This document shows positions 5,493 through 15,119 of a stretch of DNA of 64,000 bases, piece by piece. A model generated the notes under the pieces. It was not told the origin of the DNA, made no database searches, and saw nothing but the letters and a program-made list of their open reading frames with translations. The stretch is from Armatimonadota bacterium. GTDB lineage: Bacteria > Armatimonadota > SYMT01. Position numbers and translations under genes: made by a program. Location: positions 56,234 to 120,233 of the forward strand of contig JBKBRF010000014.1 of the NCBI GenBank assembly GCA_046292385.1, given 5' to 3'. How positions within the stretch are numbered: the first letter of the stretch is position 1; each line of letters starts with the position of its first letter.

Positions 5493-7313
<1,821 letters not shown>

Positions 7314-7643
7314 CGCTTCTCACTCCTCCGGTCGCCCGCCCCGAACGACCCTACGCTTGATTAACTGGTAACCACAAGACTGTTGGTGGTCGAAGGCCCC
7401 GCCTCCGGTTCGGTGCAGCGCTCCCAATCATACCGCGGTTCCACCGAAATCCCCGGCCGATTCTCGACGACCGAGGCTCACACTATCTATATGCCGCACG
7501 GTACGTTTCCTAATCACTGCGGCGGACGGAAGTTAGTAAGGAGAGCGCTCCCTCTGCAGGCGCCCCCTCTGCAGTCGCCCGAGGAACGACCGGCCGTCGA
7601 GGCGAACGCTCTCCGGCAGACGCAGTTCCATTGGGAGAGAGGC

Positions 7644-8375
7644 ATGAGCAGGCTCGAGGGGAAGACGGCAGTCGTGACCGGCGGCAACCGGGGGATCGGG
7701 GCGGCGATCGCGCGGGCGATGGCAAAGGAAGGCGCCTCCGTGGTGGTGGCGGCGCGAGACGCCGCGCGGCTGGAGGAGGTCGCCGCCGGCATCGCGGCAG
7801 AGGGCGGCGCGGCGCTGGCGGTGCCGACCGACGTGACCGACGAGGCGCAGGTGGAGGCGCTCTTCCGCCAGGCGGTGGAGCGGTTCGGGAAGGTCGACAT
7901 CCTGGTCAACAACGCCGGCGCCTTCGACGGCGGCCCGCTGGAGGAGCTCTCCCTGGAGACCTGGGAGAAGGTGATGGCGGTCAACCTGCGCGGCCCGTTC
8001 CTCTGCACCCGCGCCGCCTTCCGGCTGATGAAGGAGCAGGGCGGCGGCCGCATCATCAACATCGCCAGCATCTCCGCCCAGCGGGTGCGCCCCCACTCCG
8101 CCCCCTACAGCACCAGCAAGCACGGTCTCTGGGGCCTCACGCAGGTCACCGCCCTGGAAGGCCGCCCGTACGGCATCGCCGCGAGCTGCCTCCACCCCGG
8201 CAACACCCTGAACGAGCGCCGCGCCCAGCGCGCCACGGAGCAGGACGAAGAGCCGATGATGAGCTGCGAGGAGCTGGCCGAGACCGCCCTGCTGATGGCT
8301 TCGCTGCCGCCCCACGTGAACATGCTGGAAGCGATTGTACTGCCGGTGGAGCAGCTCTACGTCGGGCGTGGCTAG
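7644..8375 (+). CDS. Short-chain dehydrogenase/reductase (SDR)
   Basis: RBS GGAGAGG before ATG 7644; TGGNRGIG, NNAG and catalytic YSTSK. Confidence 0.95.
   Translation: MSRLEGKTAVVTGGNRGIGAAIARAMAKEGASVVVAARDAARLEEVAAGIAAEGGAALAVPTDVTDEAQVEALFRQAVERFGKVDILVNNAGAFDGGPLEELSLETWEKVMAVNLRGPFLCTRAAFRLMKEQGGGRIINIASISAQRVRPHSAPYSTSKHGLWGLTQVTALEGRPYGIAASCLHPGNTLNERRAQRATEQDEEPMMSCEELAETALLMASLPPHVNMLEAIVLPVEQLYVGRG
8181..8375 (+). repeat. Left copy of a 195-bp imperfect direct repeat (SDR 3' end) flanking the island
   Basis: Aligns without gaps to 13926-14120; differences are mostly at third codon positions. Confidence 0.92.
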
Positions 8376-8547
8376 CGGGTTCCACAGTCGACACCGCATG
8401 TCAGGCAACGGGATCTAAACAGAGGTCCAGATTCAGAGTTGCCGTCAACGGGCACAGCGGTGTTCTTGATTGATGGCTCGTGTCCGGCCGGAGCAGATTA
8501 CCGGGCCACGCAGTGTAGCTGGCTGTTGACGAGAATGAGCAGGGGAA

Positions 8548-9903
8548 ATGTCGGGGCAGGGTAAAGTTCACACTTCGGAAGACGAAACCGCACGAGGAAC
8601 GCTGGTTACGAAGTCGTCGGAAGCGCTCGAGCAAATGCTGAGAGACTATCAAGTGAGCCAGCGTCCACTTGAGGTGAATTTCAGGACCCTCGTGGGAGCG
8701 ATACCGATACATGATCTTACCCATTCAATTTGCCCCTATCCCGCGCGCCTTCTCCGCCAGATCCCTCGCTTCTTTCTCCATTGCGAGCAACTTTCGACGC
8801 GGGATACGGTCGTGGTCGATCCATTTTGCGGTTCAGGCACGGTGCTAGTGGAGGCGGTAGCGGCCGGCAAACAGGCTTGGGGCATAGACAAGAACCCTTT
8901 CGCTCGTCTGCTTTCGCAGGTGAAAACCACCCATGTAGATTGCCAAGCGGCAAATGCCGCGGCGTTAGCGGTGCTCGAAAGGGCGAAAAGGAGCCGAACG
9001 GTTGTAGAACCGGAAATAGTTAATGCTGAACTCTGGTTTGCACCCAAGGTTAGGAGCGCTCTGCGGCGAATAAAAGGAGCGATCAGCGATTCGAAGCTCC
9101 CAATCGAAATAGAGAGATACCTACTCGTCTGTTTAGCCGTTACCGCCGATAAGTGTAGTTTACGTGATCGGCGCATCCCCGTACCCGTTCGTCGTAGCGA
9201 CTGGCAGCAGTTCTCAGTGAAGCAAGACTCCCGAACCGTATGGATGAGTTTTGAAGCTGTAGCACATGCAGTCGCCGCTCGGATAAGCGGATTGCCAAAG
9301 TCCACCGGAGCCGCATTCGTATATGGGGATGACGCACTCAACGTAGATGAATTCTATGACGCTTCGATGTCAGGAATAATTCAAAGACCGAGTTTGCTCG
9401 TCACAAGTCCGCCCTACGGGGCGGCGCAAAAGTACATCCGAAGCAGCAGCCTCGCTATCGGGTGGACTGGACTGGCAAGCCCGAAGGGCCTAACGCAGCT
9501 CGAAAGAGAACTCATCGGAAGAGAACATTTAAGAAAGCCCGATTTGGAGATGCTGCAATCTCCATCTCCGCTGATTGACCATGAAATCAGATGCATCTTC
9601 AAGAGAGATCCTCAGCGGGCGGCGATATATGCGGAGTACTTCAGAGCCATGGATAAGGCGATAGCAGCCTTCGGAAGACTCCTGCAGCCGGGAGCATTCT
9701 CGGTAGTCATAGCAGGAACCAATATAGTTGCTGGCAGGATGATTGAGACACACAGATTCCTACGAGATCTTTCGGTGAATCACGGATTCTCGCCAGTGCT
9801 AGAACTGAGAGACACAATTCGGGGTAGGACTCTGCTGACTAAGCGCGCATCTACTGCGAGACCGCTGTCACACGAAACCATCCATGTTCTCCAGAGGAGG
9901 TAA
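8548..9903 (+). CDS. DNA amino-methyltransferase (probably N4-cytosine; motif I precedes motif IV)
   Basis: HSICPYPARL N-terminal motif, SAM-binding VDPFCGSGTV and catalytic VTSPPY. Confidence 0.88.
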   Translation: MSGQGKVHTSEDETARGTLVTKSSEALEQMLRDYQVSQRPLEVNFRTLVGAIPIHDLTHSICPYPARLLRQIPRFFLHCEQLSTRDTVVVDPFCGSGTVLVEAVAAGKQAWGIDKNPFARLLSQVKTTHVDCQAANAAALAVLERAKRSRTVVEPEIVNAELWFAPKVRSALRRIKGAISDSKLPIEIERYLLVCLAVTADKCSLRDRRIPVPVRRSDWQQFSVKQDSRTVWMSFEAVAHAVAARISGLPKSTGAAFVYGDDALNVDEFYDASMSGIIQRPSLLVTSPPYGAAQKYIRSSSLAIGWTGLASPKGLTQLERELIGREHLRKPDLEMLQSPSPLIDHEIRCIFKRDPQRAAIYAEYFRAMDKAIAAFGRLLQPGAFSVVIAGTNIVAGRMIETHRFLRDLSVNHGFSPVLELRDTIRGRTLLTKRASTARPLSHETIHVLQRR

Positions 9904-9908
9904 AGTGC

Positions 9909-10871
9909 ATGGGCAGTGATACCGAGGAAGAATTGATCCGTCGGATCAAGACTTTGTCCGAGCAAGTCTGGGAAGGCAGGTGCAAATCTCCAGATATGGG
10001 TGAGTGGCTACGGAACTTTACCGGCCGCCATTGCGGAAGTGCCGAGGTTGAGCATCTCCACGCGTTGCACCTACTCGCTCATGTCTCATACTTCGGGCTC
10101 AGAGAATTGCGGATTCTACTGCGCGCGATGTATCGCGAACTATTCCGCTATCCAATCGTACAGCAGATTCGATCCGATCTTGGAGGAAGCCGTGACGCGG
10201 CCTCAATTCATCGCGTTTACTCCGATGAACTGAAGTCGACACGTTTTGTGGGTATGGGGAACCCGGCCGAGAGTGGCACGCATTTGCTCTACTACTTCAG
10301 GCAGGAGAACCAGCTTCCTCGAAAGTGCTTCGCCAGCCAACACGAACTCCTCAACGCTGGTATCACAGATGCTAAAGTAGACTTTTCCGACCCCGGTCTC
10401 AAACGAGTAGTATTCATTGACGACTTGTGTGGGAGTGGAGATCAAGCGGTGCGGTATAGCAGAACCCTGTTGAAAGATCTGCGTACTATCGCAGTAAGGC
10501 GTGGCCGGGAATTACAGTTTCAATACTTGGTACTCTTCGGGGCGGTCCCGGGTCTGGAGCGTGCGGCGACTTCAACCGAATTTGACATCGTGAAGGCGGT
10601 AAATGAACTAGATGAGTCTTGCCAAGTATATGCCACCAACTCGCGGCTGTTTCGGAAACCCCCTCCCGGGATAGACGCGGCGCTGTCGCACGAACTGGCA
10701 TCCGGCTACGGTGAGGAGTTGTGGCCGGAACATCCGCTAGGGTTTTCGAACGGACAATTACTGTTGGCCTTTCATCATAACGTGCCGGACAACTCGTTGC
10801 CAATTCTCTGGCACGATGATGAGACGCCACCGTGGAACCCGATTTTTCCTCGACAACCCAAGCTAGACTGA
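9909..10871 (+). CDS. Phosphoribosyltransferase-fold protein of the conflict-system type (PRTase-CE-like)
   Basis: PRPP-loop-like VVFIDDLCGSGDQA, upstream ESG motif, and C-terminal PLGF...FHHNVPDNSLPILW...WNPIFPR. Confidence 0.78.
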   Translation: MGSDTEEELIRRIKTLSEQVWEGRCKSPDMGEWLRNFTGRHCGSAEVEHLHALHLLAHVSYFGLRELRILLRAMYRELFRYPIVQQIRSDLGGSRDAASIHRVYSDELKSTRFVGMGNPAESGTHLLYYFRQENQLPRKCFASQHELLNAGITDAKVDFSDPGLKRVVFIDDLCGSGDQAVRYSRTLLKDLRTIAVRRGRELQFQYLVLFGAVPGLERAATSTEFDIVKAVNELDESCQVYATNSRLFRKPPPGIDAALSHELASGYGEELWPEHPLGFSNGQLLLAFHHNVPDNSLPILWHDDETPPWNPIFPRQPKLD

Positions 10872-10879
10872 GGTGCTAG

Positions 10880-12886
10880 ATGCCAGCGAATCCGTTCGAG
10901 ATTACCAAAGCGGTAGATTTTACTGACGAGCAAATTGTGCAGAACTGGGTAGACTTGCCGGGTGGAGGCTTTCAGTCTCTCGCCGATCCCCGATCGCCCA
11001 TGCCCAGGTTCTTGGTAGGAGGAAAGGGTGGAGGTCGCACACATATGCTGCGGTACTTCTCCTATCCGCTGCAGCGGTTACGTCACGGGAATGACTTGCT
11101 TTCAGCAATACAGGATGATGGATATGCTGGAGTGTATTTCCGATGTACTGGTCTGAATTCTTCGCGGTTTTCGGGGAAGCAGCAAAGTCCCGAAGTATGG
11201 AGCGCTGTGTTTGCATACTACATGGAGATTTGGCTGGGCCGTCTCGTCGTCGACTTAATCAGGGAGTTAGGGTTGGGTAACGCGCAACTCGCTAACACCA
11301 CATCGTCGATGGACTTCGTGAAAGGCGTGAGAGGTCTCTTTGATGAAGAGATCGAGTCAAGCCTGTCGCAGTTGGACACGCTCGACCAATTAGCGGTCTC
11401 CCTTCATAACATCCAGCGCCAGCTTGATCTCTCGATCAACAATGTCGCTCTAACTAGATCCCTCGATGTGCGAATTGCGGTCACCCCTGGGCGGCTGGTT
11501 TTCGGAATACCGGAACTTGCAACCCGAACATTTCCGCAGATCTCTGGCTTAACATTTGCTTACCTCCTCGACGAGTTTGAGAATCTAAGCGAGGATCAGC
11601 AGCGCTATGTAAATACACTGGTGCGTGAGAAGCAACTTCCCACGACATTTGTCATTGGAAGTCGTCAGTTCGGATTGCGAACGCAAGAGACGCTAAGCGC
11701 CGGGGAAGAGAACAAGCAGGGAAGCGAGTTTGACCTGGTCGTATTAGAGGATGCATATCGAACCTCGGATAAGTACTATCACAGCTTTTGCGAAAGAATC
11801 ATTCGAAAGAGACTGGATGCCGCAGGAGTGGATGTCTATCGCCCGGAGAGGCTCGACGCTTATTTCAGCAAGCCATTGGGAGGGGTCTCCGGACTAGAGG
11901 AGCGAGCGCGGATTCATGTTTCGGAGTGCCTTGGTGATCAAGATGAGCGACCGTGGATCATCCGCCTTAAGGATCAACTTCTGCAGTGGTCACCGGGTCA
12001 GGATATAGGAAAGATCATTGAGGAAGTAAGGTTTCCGTCGAGTCCACTCCACGAGAAGTTTGCAGTGCTGCTGGTTTATCGATCCTGGGCCGATGGCAAT
12101 GACCCGCTACGAGAAGCGCGACAGTTCCGATTCCGGATAGAAGCACTAGCTAATGGCGCGCGCGTGGGAGATGACTTAGCCACAACCTATAAACACTACA
12201 GGGGAGATCTCTACGCACAATTGGTCTCGCAGTTGCGTCGGCCGCAGGAGTACCACGGGATTGACGATTTCGTGCTCATGTCCGGCTATCTCCCAAGGAA
12301 TCTTCTGGTGTTACTAAAGCAAGTGACGCGGTGGTCATTATTCCTTGGAGAACACCCGTTCCGCGGTGAGCTGATATCTTCGAAGGCTCAAACTGAAGGA
12401 GTGCGCGAAGCGAGCAACTGGTTTCTTAGCGACTCCAAGGGATTGGGGCGGATCGGTGAAGAAACGGAACTGGCGGTGCGGCGTCTTGGGGGTCTCTTTC
12501 GGGACATGAGATTCGCTGACAAACCGGTTGAAGTAAGTTGCTCGTCATTCTCAACTGATCGCCGGGGACTCACTGACAGAGCTATCGCCGTCCTGGACAA
12601 TGCCGTATCGCATAGTTTAATACTTAAGGTGCCAACTGGGCGGCGTGAGCGAAACACTCACGTACTACAGCACAAGTATCAATTGAACCCCATGCTTGCT
12701 CCATTGTTTGACTTGTCGGTCGCCAGAAGAGGCACAGCGAACTTTACTCCCGAGCAATTAGTCGCACTTTTTGATCCAAGTGTCGATGCAGAGCACTTCA
12801 TCGCTGAGCGAACGCGGCTCTTGGCGCGGCTGAATGCTCCGTTCTCTACTCCGACTCCGCAGCCAGCCCTGGATTTCTCTGAGTGA
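10880..12886 (+). CDS. Large P-loop ATPase, ORC/CDC6- or STAND-like
   Basis: NPF N-terminus, Walker A-like GGKGGGRT, Walker B YLLDEFENL, sensor-like SGYLPRNLL and C-terminal YQLNPMLAPLF. Confidence 0.78.
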   Translation: MPANPFEITKAVDFTDEQIVQNWVDLPGGGFQSLADPRSPMPRFLVGGKGGGRTHMLRYFSYPLQRLRHGNDLLSAIQDDGYAGVYFRCTGLNSSRFSGKQQSPEVWSAVFAYYMEIWLGRLVVDLIRELGLGNAQLANTTSSMDFVKGVRGLFDEEIESSLSQLDTLDQLAVSLHNIQRQLDLSINNVALTRSLDVRIAVTPGRLVFGIPELATRTFPQISGLTFAYLLDEFENLSEDQQRYVNTLVREKQLPTTFVIGSRQFGLRTQETLSAGEENKQGSEFDLVVLEDAYRTSDKYYHSFCERIIRKRLDAAGVDVYRPERLDAYFSKPLGGVSGLEERARIHVSECLGDQDERPWIIRLKDQLLQWSPGQDIGKIIEEVRFPSSPLHEKFAVLLVYRSWADGNDPLREARQFRFRIEALANGARVGDDLATTYKHYRGDLYAQLVSQLRRPQEYHGIDDFVLMSGYLPRNLLVLLKQVTRWSLFLGEHPFRGELISSKAQTEGVREASNWFLSDSKGLGRIGEETELAVRRLGGLFRDMRFADKPVEVSCSSFSTDRRGLTDRAIAVLDNAVSHSLILKVPTGRRERNTHVLQHKYQLNPMLAPLFDLSVARRGTANFTPEQLVALFDPSVDAEHFIAERTRLLARLNAPFSTPTPQPALDFSE

Positions 12887-13848
12887 CGATGGACTACAGC
12901 CTTCTTCGCATTGATCAATATCAGGCAACGGAGCTTGAAGCGCTCCCCGAGTGGGATATCTTCATCTCCGCCTACAACGAGTCGCAGCGAGTAATCACTG
13001 TTTTTGACTCCGTGCGCGCGCAGCGTAAAGAGTGGGTAATCCATCCGGAGTACGACTTCGAGGATGGCGAATTGCCGAAGACCGGAGTTGTGCGAGTTCT
13101 GCATACGCGTGATGAAGCGGAGTTCTGGCATGACTACTTCTCTGAGGCCGACTTTCATAATCTTCCCCGTGATTCCCGGATTTGCGTCGATGTGACGGGG
13201 TTTATGCGTCCGCATTTGATGCTATTACCGCGGATGCTTCGATTGCTTGGATTCGCTCAACTGGATATAGTGTATTCTGATCCTCGTGAGTATCAATCGG
13301 GAGAAAAGACTCAATTCAGCAAAGGGGCAGTCACTGAGGTGCGGCAAATCCGTGGGTTTGAGGGTACACACCTGCCCAGTGGCGACGAGGACTTGCTGGT
13401 CATTGGGGCTGGATATGACGACGATTTGATCCGGAGAGTCTCCGAAGATAAGCGCGCGGCTCGGAAACTGATGATGTTCGGGCTTCCTAGTCTTCAGCCC
13501 CATATGTATGAGGAAAACCGTCTGCGCGCAGCAAGAGCCGAAGAGGCAGTAGGCCCGTTGCCGGCACGTTCTCTGTTGTTTGCGCCCGCCAACAATCCGT
13601 TTGCCACGGCGCAGGAGCTTCACGACAAGATACAACAGTTGCGCTCGACTGGCTTTACGAACCTGTACTTCAGCCCGCTTGGCACGAAGGCTCAAGCACT
13701 GGGATTTGCTCTCTACTATCTGTGCGAGTGTGTGGGTTCGAGTGCGAGCGTCGTATTCCCGTTCGCAGAGTATTACACTCGTGAGACATCCATCGGCTTG
13801 GCTCGCGTTTGGTGCTATCGGGTGGAACTCGATTGGCTGAACGTCTGA
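12883..13848 (+). CDS. Hypothetical Rossmannoid (CARF-like or PRTase-like) partner protein
   Basis: Start overlaps the ATPase stop (GTGA; alternative ATG 12889). Motifs ICVDVTGF, YSDPREY, LVIGAGYD and YFSPLGTKAQALG indicate an alpha/beta fold. Confidence 0.7.
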   Translation: MTMDYSLLRIDQYQATELEALPEWDIFISAYNESQRVITVFDSVRAQRKEWVIHPEYDFEDGELPKTGVVRVLHTRDEAEFWHDYFSEADFHNLPRDSRICVDVTGFMRPHLMLLPRMLRLLGFAQLDIVYSDPREYQSGEKTQFSKGAVTEVRQIRGFEGTHLPSGDEDLLVIGAGYDDDLIRRVSEDKRAARKLMMFGLPSLQPHMYEENRLRAARAEEAVGPLPARSLLFAPANNPFATAQELHDKIQQLRSTGFTNLYFSPLGTKAQALGFALYYLCECVGSSASVVFPFAEYYTRETSIGLARVWCYRVELDWLNV

Positions 13849-13925
13849 ATGTGTCGGTGGAGTTATTGCTCTAGTTTGTTTTCTCACATTGACCACTGGT
13901 CGGTTGGGTTACCGGATGTTCCGCG

Positions 13926-14120
13926 GCGAACTGCATCCACCCCGGCCACACCTTGAACGAGCGCCGCGCCCAGCGCGCTACGGAGCAGGACGAGGAGCCG
14001 ATGATGAGCTGCGAGGAGTTGGCCGAGACCGCCCTGCTGATGGCCTCGCTGCCGCCCCACGTGAACATGCTGGAAGCGATCGTGCTGCCGGTGGAGCAGC
14101 TCTACGTGGGAAGGGGATAG
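13926..14120 (+). pseudogene. Orphan 3' fragment (64 codons plus stop) of the SDR gene; right direct-repeat copy
   Basis: Translates to ANCIHPGHTLNERRAQRATEQDEEPMMSCEELAETALLMASLPPHVNMLEAIVLPVEQLYVGRG*, nearly identical to the SDR C-terminus; no start or N-terminal part. Confidence 0.9.
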
Positions 14121-14384
14121 GGCTTCGCCCAGGGTCTAGGGTCCAGGGGTTAGGGTGTCGGACTGGCGGCGGGCGGGGGCGCCATGCGTGTACGGCCGCT
14201 CCTACTCATTCTCTTTCTCCTTCTCCTTCTCGGCTGCGATCCTTTCGCGGCGGAAGCCCCTCTCGTTTAGCGAGTACCTCGTTTCCGCTCGGCCCCGGTG
14301 GCGCGCGGCTGCGGGGTGCGCTAACATTTTCGCAGTACCCTGTCGCGGGTCCGCGGCGCCGGCCTTCGCCGCAAAGGAGCTGAC

Positions 14385-15119
14385 GTGAAACCGTCTACCA
14401 TTCGCCTTCCGCTGGTCCTGGCTTCTCTGGCGCTGCCTCTGCTGACCGCCGTGCCGGCCGCGGCCCAGGGGGCGCCGGCCGCGCCCGGGAGCGGCGACCT
14501 GCGCGCGCTGCTCTCCGGCAAGCAGGCGCCGCTGACGCTGAAGCTGCGCGAGCTGAGCCCGGAGTGGCGTCGGGTGACGCTGCGGACTCCGGCCGAGGCG
14601 CCGGGCGAGGGGAGCGGGTTCCTCGGCATGATGCTCGGCGGGATGTTCGGGCCGATGGCAAGCGGCCTCACGCCGTCCGCGCCGCCGGTCTACACCCAGG
14701 GCGACACGATCAGCCTGGGCGGAGAGCTCTACCTGATCGCTTACCGGCCCCCGAAGCCGGCGCTCGACCTGCTGGCGCTCAAGCGGGCCGCCGAGCAGAA
14801 TGCGGAGCTGCCGCCTCCCGAAGTGCTGAGGCCCGACACCGAGCTGTCGCTCTGGCTGATCCAGTTCCGCGACATCCAATCGCTCGGAGAGATCCGCCCG
14901 TTCAACCTCGACCTGGAGCTGCGGGAGAGCGAGAAGGCGGCGGCGGCTGAGACGGCGCTGCGGAAAGAGTTGATGGGCGGGGTGTTCGGCGGCGGTGCGG
15001 CACCCGCGGCTCCCGAGCCGGAGGTGTTTGCGGAGCCGGCGCTCCCGGAGGAGGCTCCCGCGCCGAAACCGGCTGCGAAGAAGCCCGCCCCCAAGAAGCC
15101 CGCCCCCAAGAAGCGCTGA
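14385..15119 (+). CDS. Hypothetical exported protein with Pro/Ala/Lys-rich tail
   Basis: RBS AAGGAG before GTG; signal peptide ending AAA-Q; C-terminal KPAAKKPAPKKPAPKKR. Confidence 0.8.
   Translation: MKPSTIRLPLVLASLALPLLTAVPAAAQGAPAAPGSGDLRALLSGKQAPLTLKLRELSPEWRRVTLRTPAEAPGEGSGFLGMMLGGMFGPMASGLTPSAPPVYTQGDTISLGGELYLIAYRPPKPALDLLALKRAAEQNAELPPPEVLRPDTELSLWLIQFRDIQSLGEIRPFNLDLELRESEKAAAAETALRKELMGGVFGGGAAPAAPEPEVFAEPALPEEAPAPKPAAKKPAPKKPAPKKR

Follow-up and report, generated by a model that had tools for sequence, protein, structure and literature searches.

What is the role of four tightly packed genes of unusually low GC content in an Armatimonadota genome, which combine a DNA methyltransferase, a phosphoribosyltransferase (PRTase) and an ATPase with a protein that Pfam does not recognize? 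A preliminary description, made from the letters alone, had proposed a nuclease-free defence system. We analyzed the locus in its 64,000-nucleotide stretch (the window), and compared it with related loci and known systems.

The island and its borders

The features of the region, with window positions, are the following:

8177..8375, + strand: direct repeat copy 1, the 3′ end, including the stop codon, of an intact short-chain dehydrogenase gene (7383–8375); left island border
8376..8547, + strand: upstream intergenic region of the cassette
8548..9903, + strand: gene A, 451 aa; amino (N6-adenine or N4-cytosine) DNA methyltransferase
9909..10871, + strand: gene B, 320 aa; PRTase-CE phosphoribosyltransferase, likely effector
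10880..12886, + strand: gene C, 668 aa; ORC-CDC6-like AAA+ ATPase with Walker A GGKGGGRTH and Walker B LLDEFE
12883..13848, + strand: gene D, 321 aa; stand-alone tandem CARF protein (possible SAVED-like pseudo-dimer) and putative nucleotide sensor, lacking any fused effector domain
13922..14120, + strand: direct repeat copy 2, an orphan copy of the same dehydrogenase 3′ end; right island border

The four co-oriented genes are separated by 5 bp (A/B) and 8 bp (B/C), while C and D share a 4-bp overlap. The GC content was 0.52–0.55 over positions 8500–14000, as compared with 0.66–0.73 on either flank, and a fine profile showed a fall from 0.64 to 0.52–0.60 within the upstream intergenic region. 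The gene count, orientation, spacing, overlap and GC drop of the preliminary description were all re-found from the ORF list and the GC profile. The motifs it quoted are present in the translations: DPFCGSGT and TSPPY in A, FIDDLCGSG in B, GGKGGGRT and LLDEFE in C, and SPLGTK in D. No sigma-70-like site was found on the + strand of 8376..8547, and no Rfam family matched in 7300–14500, the upstream intergenic region included.

A repeat search revealed a 199-nt direct repeat at the borders. Its copies are 92% identical, with 16 differences that fall mostly at third codon positions, and copy 1 is closer than copy 2 to the orthologues in five relatives. The region looks like a 5.5-kb foreign, horizontally acquired island carrying a self-contained four-gene module. 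None of the four proteins matched a nuclease or integrase family in Pfam, PADLOC or NCBIfam, in agreement with the earlier claim that no restriction endonuclease or integrase is recognizable.

Folds of the four proteins and the predicted B–D complex

The four products had been described as a methyltransferase, a PRTase, an ORC/CDC6-like ATPase and a Rossmann-fold protein. The call for A was supported by PF01555 (4.5e-09) and by the PADLOC Type II MTase models, with MTase_II scoring best (8.2e-31). Motif I (DPFCGSGT) lies about 190 residues ahead of motif IV (TSPPY), and each is at least 90% conserved in 74 A homologues. Two distant variants, L089 and L091, carry an unrelated methylase of the N6_Mtase/Eco57I type downstream of B-C-D. 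The presence of a different methylase family implies that the methylase is kept by non-orthologous replacement. The sole locus without A (L015) has a Type IV methyl-directed restriction enzyme adjoining the cassette. A could be an orphan methylase or serve another purpose.

The PRTase call for B was upheld by PF24390 (PRTase-CE; 3.6e-53, 181.5 bits, cut-off 27) and by the PADLOC retron PRTase_III-A model (4.9e-29). Some 110 residues at the N terminus of B form a helical extension, and its PRPP-binding loop is acidic. The loop residues D171 and D172 (FIDDxCGSGxQ) were invariant across 28 sequences, together with G278, H290, N291, P293 and N295. By these matches, B is kin of the retron type III-A effectors, and it is the likely effector of the cassette.

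The ORC/CDC6-like call for C was confirmed by PF24389 (3.7e-120, 402.8 bits, cut-off 27). A structure search with the C model (pLDDT 91) returned ORC/Cdc6 as the best fold matches (Z 12–13.6), followed by TnsC, MuB, BrxC (Z 10.7–10.9) and RdrA (Z 10.8); the Z scores to ORC, TnsC, RFC, BrxC and RdrA span only about 3 units. Residues K49, G50, G52, T54, D231 and E232 were invariant in 49 sequences. The position before T54 is Arg in this cassette, and R or K across the family. The modelled fold suggests a place for C among the DNA-binding initiators and loaders, where it may serve as a DNA-facing sensor or switch.

For D, Pfam yielded no match, and the PADLOC CARF6 model PDLC01914 aligned over residues 3–316 at 2.8e-103. 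The best fold match to the D model (pLDDT 93) was Can1 (6sce_A; Z 12.4, rmsd 3.5, 221 residues aligned over 24–299; VIA-align). The CARF domains of Csm6, Card1, Can2 and Cam1 matched residues 151–316 with Z scores of 10.5–11.8. SAVED proteins (Cap5, Cap4, CalpL and viral) aligned over 21–297 with lower scores (Z 7.0–8.7) than Can1 and the single CARF domains; the viral SAVED ring nuclease 9r8s_B was among the matches (Z 8.6). The Rossmann-fold label was too broad: PDLC01914 and Can1 identify D as a tandem CARF protein. Its family comprises 972 sequence clusters at 50% identity. In CARF domains, conserved loops that follow strands 1 and 4 form the ligand pocket. The conserved loops of D come after model strands 24–30, 100–103, 170–176 and 260–264, and their residues S29, N32, R36, D103, G106, G175, G177, N260 and Y262 were invariant in 36 sequences, with K269 nearly so.

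B and D were predicted to bind each other, with ipSAE values of 0.89, 0.89 and 0.88 in three runs, as compared with 0.01 for the best of three controls. Contact agreement between the runs was at least 88%, and the pLDDT of the partner was at least 87. Of 80 solved complexes, 58 reach the ipSAE mark, as do 2 of 110 mismatched pairs; these are rough counts here, as the alignments were our own. On the D side, the modelled interface consists of residues 201–203, 206–217 and 228–241, and takes in the invariant residues G200, P202, L204, Y209, A236 and P239. The N-terminal helical extension of B contacts D, while the CARF loops (S29/N32/R36, D103/G106, G175/G177, N260/Y262/K269) are left free. We found no relatives of B, C or D with a solved structure, so the high B–D score probably does not reflect a known complex. 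The ligand-binding role proposed earlier for D fits its CARF identity; given the predicted PRTase binding, this role would shift to that of an effector gate.

We read the cassette as a methylation-marked, nuclease-free anti-phage or anti-plasmid system with a CARF-gated PRTase effector, and consider that this reading has an even chance of being correct. In the mechanism we infer, A would methylate host DNA and so mark self, and C would act as the DNA-facing sensor or switch. D would sit on the N-terminal helical domain of B and gate B in response to a nucleotide ligand. Released B would then consume PRPP or alter a nucleotide pool, and its activity would halt both the replication of the phage and the growth of the cell, an outcome reported for the related retron PRTase. 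Known makers of CARF ligands are absent from the cassette enzymes, which counts against this reading: no Cas10 or CD-NTase signal synthase was found within the four genes by Pfam, PADLOC and NCBIfam. In favour of the reading, the host genome (98.45% complete) gave no match to Csm1, Cmr2 or SMODS (TIGR02578, TIGR02577, PF18144).

The same proteins could be arranged around DNA itself. B would place phosphoribose on the ring or exocyclic nitrogens of adenine or cytosine at unmethylated sites, A would block those positions in host DNA, and the ATPase would load the enzyme on DNA. The retention of a DNA amino-methylase even by non-orthologous replacement, the resemblance of C to the DNA-loading AAA+ proteins ORC, TnsC and MuB, and the lack of a nuclease in the cassette (Pfam, PADLOC, NCBIfam) are consistent with such chemistry. 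PRTases attach ribose phosphate to nitrogen nucleophiles, for example to N1 of the ATP adenine ring (HisG). However, PRTases are not known to act on DNA, and the CARF sensor would have no role and the ThyX and dUTPase genes described below no explanation. We regard base phosphoribosylation as very improbable.

Conserved order, accessory genes and distribution

The preliminary description had proposed a survey of homologue neighbourhoods for conserved gene order, and this survey bore the operon out. Under a strict criterion, 69 of the 80 related loci were collinear for A-B-C-D, and four further loci with split alignments brought the total to 73, across many phyla. The others were cut by contig ends (three), had an insertion in B (two), lacked A (one) or carried A inverted downstream (one). 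Since the order recurs in 69 of the 80 loci, the arrangement is more than chance.

An extra ThyX, dUTPase, MazG-like, Nudix-like or HIT gene adjoins the cassette in 36 of the 80 loci; the window's own cassette has no accessory nucleotide gene of this kind. The ThyX/dUTPase link is a new observation, which the preliminary description had missed, as it had the flanking direct repeat and the variant with another methylase. In two genomes (G027 and G029), no trimeric dUTPase was found other than the one adjoining the cassette, and some adjacencies may therefore reflect the insertion site and not a shared function. The accessory ThyX was redundant with host ThyA in 5 of the 5 genomes tested. The presence of ThyX, dUTPase, MazG-like and Nudix-like accessories hints that the dUTP/dUMP/dTMP branch is involved, through either the ligand or the damage. 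A simple PRPP-depletion model does not predict the strong ThyX/dUTPase link, which counts against the CARF-gated effector reading.

The accessory genes also bear on a scheme in which the signal flows the other way. B would generate the signal and not do the killing: when the ATPase activates B on foreign DNA, B would make a PRPP-derived nucleotide, e.g., a phosphoribosylated nucleotide that is read by the bound D and passed to C or A, or used for feedback. B is the sole nucleotide-making enzyme in this self-contained cassette, whose host lacks Cas10 and CD-NTase, the predicted B–D binding (0.89 against 0.01 for the best control) would suit such a relay, and the adjoining MazG/PRA-PH-like, dUTPase, Nudix-like and HIT hydrolases could degrade the signal. 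ThyX, however, is no signal-degrading enzyme, and no terminal effector would be left. In PMC12746101, the related retron PRTases are described as effectors. Reversed flow is unlikely in our view.

The cassette is widespread. We confirmed 126 matches among the species-level genomes scanned, one full-length C relative among 2.9 million viral contigs, and matches in 10 of 72,556 plasmid records. The cassette was found on conjugative rhizobial plasmids and beside integrases, and two loci from different phyla (L034 and L042) carry near-identical cassettes (79% in C, 81% in ThyX). In many loci, defence or mobile genes lie within the two nearest ORFs, for example AbiEi, HmaC, GajA, AbiGi, GmrSD-like, Type I methylases, Dsr1, MkoC, integrases and transposases. 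The defence neighbourhood expected earlier was seen as frequent defence and mobile genes, in a raw tally without a matched background.

Its presence on conjugative rhizobial plasmids and near integrases would also suit a fitness or counter-defence module of mobile elements. A would shield the element's DNA from host restriction, D would soak up or cleave host cyclic-oligonucleotide signals, and the PRTase, ThyX and dUTPase would restore nucleotide pools. The viral SAVED ring nuclease among the D fold matches and the duplication of host ThyA by the accessory ThyX point in this direction. We nevertheless find such a module quite improbable: the fixed order across phyla and the predicted B–D complex point to one machine, and the viral and plasmid matches are few beside the 126 in species-level genomes. 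We find it hardly credible that the genes form a housekeeping or niche operon that serves nucleotide salvage or DNA modification and plays no part in conflict. PRTase, ThyX and dUTPase are indeed metabolic families, but the distribution is patchy and crosses phylum boundaries, near-identical cassettes occur in different phyla, and the window copy has foreign GC content and flanking repeats. The frequent defence neighbours, as well as the CARF and retron-effector kinship, point to conflict.

A more far-reaching scheme, which we offer tentatively and with limited expectation that it is right, is a CARF pathway without a cyclase. The D-held PRTase would make a new PRPP-derived messenger or phosphoribosylate unmethylated DNA, the methylase would protect self, and ThyX/dUTPase would link deoxyuridine nucleotides to the pathway. 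If true, it would give restriction or immune signalling a new chemical principle. The cassette could also teach what CARF senses outside CRISPR and what chemistry defence PRTases perform, and could explain why thymidylate and dUTP enzymes accompany an immune module. The predicted B–D interface and the conserved catalytic residues make these readings directly testable.

Comparison with known systems

No known defence system in PADLOC 2.0.0 or NCBIfam matched the cassette, in line with the earlier statement that no experimental characterization of the combination was known. Three of its proteins are hypothetical in the NCBI annotation, and we found no description of it in the literature searched, which covered the relevant papers incompletely.

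A has the catalytic motifs I and IV of Type II R-M methyltransferases, but the cassette has no cognate restriction endonuclease (A–D by Pfam, PADLOC and NCBIfam), and no extra conserved nuclease gene appeared among the clustered flanking genes of related loci. With BREX, it shares a DNA amino-methylase and an ORC/Cdc6-like AAA+ ATPase, with no recognizable nuclease. BREX is made up of the PglX methylase, the BrxC ATPase, the PglZ phosphatase and BrxA/B/L partners, whereas the cassette has four genes. C matches the BrxC structures (Z 10.7–10.9) no more strongly than ORC, TnsC or RFC, and this likeness is structural only. BREX component models were matched by none of B, C and D, nor by A among the best 25 of 45 PADLOC families, and PglZ and BrxA/B/L formed no recurrent flank cluster.

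Type III CRISPR and CBASS effectors (Can1, Csm6, Card1/Can2, Cam1, Cap4/Cap5) follow the same logic of a sensor controlling an effector. Like Can1 (Z 12.4, 221 residues), D has two CARF folds in one chain, an arrangement that may also relate it to SAVED domains. Unlike these effectors, D has no fused effector domain, and the prediction has it contact a separate effector protein in trans. The cassette's effector would be a PRTase and not a nuclease, protease or pore, and its host genome offers no Cas10, CD-NTase or CRISPR context.

With the retron type III-A systems (e.g., Retron-Eco11), B shares the PRTase_III-A/PRTase-CE match and the acidic PRPP loop. PMC12746101 describes the related retron PRTases as effectors and gives their motif as Gx14PNNxP, which the G-x14-P-D-N-x-x-P stretch of B resembles. 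In contrast to retrons, the four genes encode no reverse transcriptase domain, and Rfam found no ncRNA in 7300–14500. In the model, the N-terminal helical extension of B lies on the CARF protein; the retron effector instead has a C-terminal wHTH and tail, according to PMC12746101.

PRTase-fold proteins like B also occur in phage defence as the ShosT and PsyrT toxins and OpnC of Ophion. ShosT disrupts purine metabolism according to PMC11961720, and defence PRTases are placed in one clade in the preprint 10.1101/2025.09.30.679545. The partners of these proteins are an antitoxin, a RecQ-like helicase, or radical SAM and PHP enzymes, and their systems have no CARF protein, ORC-like ATPase or methylase. 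NCBIfam DS32_1 scored E = 0.28 only. With neither a nuclease nor a known signal synthase, the cassette would bring together three themes that mostly occur apart: self-marking by methylation, a BREX-like use of an ORC-like ATPase, and a CARF-gated effector as in type III CRISPR.

Island borders and cassette layout

The low-GC segment of the window holds four genes: A, an amino DNA methyltransferase; B, a PRTase-CE protein; C, an ORC-CDC6-like AAA+ ATPase; and D, a tandem CARF protein. The layout given in the preliminary description was reproduced. The ORFs are co-oriented on the + strand, with gaps of 5 and 8 bp and a C/D overlap of 4 bp, and all of the motifs quoted for them were seen in the translations. 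The GC content is 0.52-0.55 over 8500-14000, compared with 0.66-0.73 on either side.

Cassette genes and flanking direct repeat (window positions)
8177-8375: direct repeat copy 1, which forms the 3' end of a short-chain dehydrogenase gene that is intact (7383-8375)
8548-9903, + strand: gene A, 451 aa
9909-10871, + strand: gene B, 320 aa
10880-12886, + strand: gene C, 668 aa
12883-13848, + strand: gene D, 321 aa
13922-14120: direct repeat copy 2, an orphan duplicate with the stop codon still at its end

The 199-nt direct repeat flanks the low-GC segment on both sides. Its copies are 92% identical and differ at 16 positions, mostly third codon positions. Copy 1 was nearer to the orthologues in five relatives (85.8, 83.7, 82.9, 80.2, and 75.4%) than copy 2 (83.1, 81.1, 78.8, 79.2, and 74.5%). 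This pattern looks like the scar of a site-specific integration at a gene 3' end, with the element bringing its own copy of that end. The preliminary description had recognized no integrase, and the ORF and Pfam searches likewise found none in the island. An island-free site was not demonstrable in 20 relatives, which are too distant: the dehydrogenase 3' end alone was matched, at 73-83%. Scanning for promoters and terminators yielded fewer sites in the window than in shuffled sequences, and the operon ends had none. Immediately to the right of the island, a stretch of ~110 nt (14120-14233), probably an intergenic repeat of the dispersed kind, had ~20 further matches in the host genome at 73-94% identity.

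Protein identities and the predicted B-D complex

Protein A matched PF01555 (4.5e-09) and, with values as low as 8.2e-31, the Type II methyltransferase models of PADLOC. Motif I (DPFCGSGT) lies ~190 residues ahead of motif IV (TSPPY), and across 74 homologues the conservation of each was 90% or more. The predicted product is either N6-methyladenine or N4-methylcytosine. Protein B was identified by PF24390 PRTase-CE (3.6e-53) and by PADLOC retron type III-A PRTase effector models (4.9e-29). In 28 sequences, Asp171 and Asp172 of the PRPP loop FIDDxCGSGxQ were invariant, as was the block G278...H290-N291-x-P293-x-N295, which resembles the retron-specific motif Gx14PNNxP described in PMC12746101.

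Protein C matched PF24389 ORC-CDC6-like (3.7e-120), and its Walker A and B residues were invariant in 49 sequences. The model (pLDDT 91) aligned best with ORC/Cdc6 structures (Z 12-13.6), followed by TnsC, MuB, RFC, BrxC (Z 10.7-10.9), and RdrA (10.8). Since these scores lie near each other, they settle the class alone, that of an initiator/loader-type AAA+ protein.

For D, there was no Pfam or NCBIfam match; the PADLOC CARF6 model PDLC01914 covered its full length (2.8e-103). The predicted structure (pLDDT 93) showed two Rossmann-like halves. An all-against-representatives structural search placed Can1 (6sce_A) first, with Z 12.4, rmsd 3.5, and 221 residues aligned over 24-299. Can1 has two CARF domains within a single chain. 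The second half of D matched the CARF domains of Csm6, Card1, Can2, and Cam1 (Z 10.5-11.8), and both halves matched SAVED domains (Z 7.4-8.7). Together, these matches and the CARF6 model assign D as a stand-alone tandem CARF sensor. The label of Rossmann-fold protein given in the preliminary description is thus borne out by the modeled halves, but it is too loose. A sequence search for solved structures among relatives of B, C, and D gave nothing significant.

The prediction of the B-D complex gave ipSAE values of 0.89, 0.89, and 0.88 in three runs, while the best of three controls reached 0.01. Of 80 solved complexes, 58 attained the ipSAE mark applied, as did 2 of 110 mismatched pairs; these counts are approximate here, as our own alignments were used. 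At least 88% of the contacts agreed between runs, and the partner pLDDT was at least 87. Because no like complex has been solved, this result probably does not reproduce a known structure. In the model, B uses its N-terminal helical extension (residues 12-100), together with 231-250, to contact D at 201-217 and 228-241. This contact would explain the invariance of G200, P202, L204, Y209, A236, and P239 in D, and it leaves the conserved CARF loops exposed. The prediction supports the mutual binding of B and D.

With these identities, a nuclease-free defence system, as first proposed, is the best-supported reading of the cassette. The protein families, gene order, folds, predicted B-D complex, and lack of a known cyclase come from the analysis itself; the defence role, the input sensed by C, the CARF ligand, and the PRTase reaction are our inferences. 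A would mark host DNA, C would serve as a DNA-facing sensor or switch, and D would gate B. Activated B would then use up PRPP or shift a nucleotide pool, and the infection would be aborted. For Retron-Eco11, PMC12746101 describes a PRPP decrease of ~50% followed by abortive infection. In the host genome (98.45% complete), the ATPase family is represented once, and searches for Csm1, Cmr2, and SMODS gave no match; therefore, neither type III CRISPR nor CBASS would supply the CARF ligand in this host. That the PRTase itself produces the signal read by the CARF protein remains a rival to the gating scheme.

Distribution, variants and neighboring genes

A C profile search of one-genome-per-species contigs gave 185 pattern matches, of which 126 were confirmed by tblastn, and the best 80 of these 126 were kept. 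The loci come from Acidobacteriota, Actinomycetota, Planctomycetota, Myxococcota, Bacteroidota, Alpha-, Beta-, and Gammaproteobacteria, Chloroflexota, Nitrospirota, Verrucomicrobiota, Latescibacterota, and Gemmatimonadota. The survey of these neighborhoods revealed a conserved gene order. By best alignment, A-B-C-D lay on a single strand with short gaps in 69 of the 80 loci, and four more were collinear with split alignments (L007, L014, L030, L044). Three loci were cut by contig ends (L002, L060, L068), two had an insertion within B (L019, L040), A was absent from one (L015), and in one it was inverted and downstream (L018). In L019 and L040, the first ~200 residues of the PRTase matched, followed by a 1.6-2.9 kb insertion before the C match; both PRTase copies are probably inactivated. 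When 736 flank ORFs were clustered, the most widespread family reached no further than 15 loci, and no fifth core gene emerged.

The D profile recovered 972 clusters at E <= 1e-3 among 1.84 billion representatives; with few exceptions, the lengths were 300-335 aa. One match, P0358 (787 aa), was considered as a C-D fusion and rejected, its N-terminal part being unrelated to protein C. That part is P-loop NTPase-like, and the C-terminus is the second half of a CARF6-type domain (profile positions 112-298). A 6.8-kb contig labeled as a Heimdallarchaeota MAG (L059) carried complete A-B-C-D and a Nudix-like neighbor; it may reflect a binning artefact or transfer into archaea.

Two variants bear on the methyltransferase. 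In the viral-contig loci L089:3828-8875 and L091:9018-14080, the order is PRTase-CE, ORC-CDC6-like, and D-like (24% identity), then an N6_Mtase/Eco57I-type methylase. This enzyme belongs to another family than the PF01555-type A and sits after D, so a methylase was retained via non-orthologous replacement, an argument for methylation having a part in how the system functions. An integrase lies upstream of the L091 cassette. At L015:13151-16474, the sole complete locus without A, a Type IV methyl-directed restriction enzyme (PADLOC mREase_IV, E = 0) directly follows the CARF gene. This fits a DNA-methylating role of A, as a single case. Phosphoribosylation of unmethylated DNA by the PRTase remains a less likely rival explanation.

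Viral contigs contained one full-length relative of C, inside a complete cassette (L088), so the cassette is rare there; three more distant viral-contig loci, including L089 and L091, had diverged B and C. On plasmids, it occurred in 10 of 72,556 records, mostly rhizobial, five of them conjugative. Among the nearest ORFs, Pfam assigned integrases, transposases, a resolvase, methylase and specificity subunits of Type I systems, GmrSD-like proteins, an OLD-family ATPase, AbiGi, a TIR-TPR protein, SIR2, ThiF-JAB, ArdA, and PLD-helicases. PADLOC, run on 61 selected flank ORFs, named AbiEi, HmaC, mREase_IV, GajA, AbiGi, PDC-S01, HEC-05, HEC-06, PDC-S31, Aga-type REase, Dsr1, PDC-S36, and MkoC, among others. 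These neighbors, a gene list and not an enrichment figure, are consistent with defence islands. A counter-defence or fitness module of mobile elements remains a competing view of the cassette.

Thymidylate and dUTP genes recurred next to the cassette. The nearest ORFs, taken as up to two on each side that lie within 2.5 kb and have at least 110 aa, number 278, and the Pfam scan covered 270 of them; the other eight belong to L078-L080. Genes of the six types listed were present in 36 of the 80 loci; the window's own cassette has none of them.

Accessory genes beside the cassette
ThyX: 16 loci (15 identified with Pfam, L080 solely through its BLAST cluster); 12 share the strand of the cassette, with spacings between a 21-nt overlap and a 136-nt gap
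Trimeric dUTPase: 11 loci, each identified with Pfam; 8 share the strand of the cassette
Dimeric dUTPase: 2 loci (L004, L025)
PRA-PH/MazG-like pyrophosphatase: 3 loci (L022-L024), all Pedobacter
Nudix-like protein: 4 loci; weak PF00293 in 3 of 4, one above the cut-off
HIT protein: 1 locus (L008)

At L007, a dUTPase gene lies upstream of the cassette and a ThyX gene downstream of it. In a thyX-A-B-C-D operon on a S. meliloti plasmid, the stop codon of thyX overlaps the beginning of the methylase gene. As a genome holds one dut and at most a few thyX among thousands of genes, simple reasoning puts this adjacency far beyond chance. Canonical ThyA was also present in all five genomes tested that carry a cassette-linked ThyX, so this ThyX is an extra copy. 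Between L034 (Gammaproteobacteria MAG) and L042 (Chloroflexota MAG), ThyX was 81% and C 79% identical. Hence thyX and the cassette genes moved together, and these identities indicate a recent transfer of a five-gene unit between phyla. The overall correlation of ThyX and C identities was weak (Spearman 0.26, 105 non-independent pairs), the individual pairs being more telling. The occurrence of unrelated dUTP/NTP pyrophosphatases at the same position suggests that what counts is their enzymatic activity. Deoxyuridine nucleotides may be a signal to be kept low, or the action of the system may upset the dUTP/dTTP balance. In genomes G027 and G029, the cassette-adjacent dUTPase was the sole trimeric one found, which counts against a purely functional reading. 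A metabolic operon remains a further, unlikely rival reading of the cassette.

Comparison with known systems

Running PADLOC 2.0.0, a check suggested in the preliminary description, gave matches to the CARF6 and retron PRTase models and no model matching C; NCBIfam named none of B, C, and D. Literature searches on phage defence with PRTase, CARF, ORC-CDC6, and methyltransferase did not find a description of the four-gene system, although an earlier computational one is possible, and the searched terms were absent from PMC11090510 and PMC10542128. The consecutive Pfam accessions of the B and C families (PF24390, PF24389) suggest that Pfam curators had already seen these genes together. In the literature found, the cassette is experimentally uncharacterized, and there is a real chance of new chemistry.

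The cassette differs from type III CRISPR accessories and CBASS in having no synthase, from retrons in having no RT or ncRNA, and from Type II R-M in having no endonuclease. It is also distinct from BREX, with no BREX partner model among the PADLOC matches listed. In its mode of working, it resembles a CARF-gated effector, and it also resembles methylation-based self/non-self systems.
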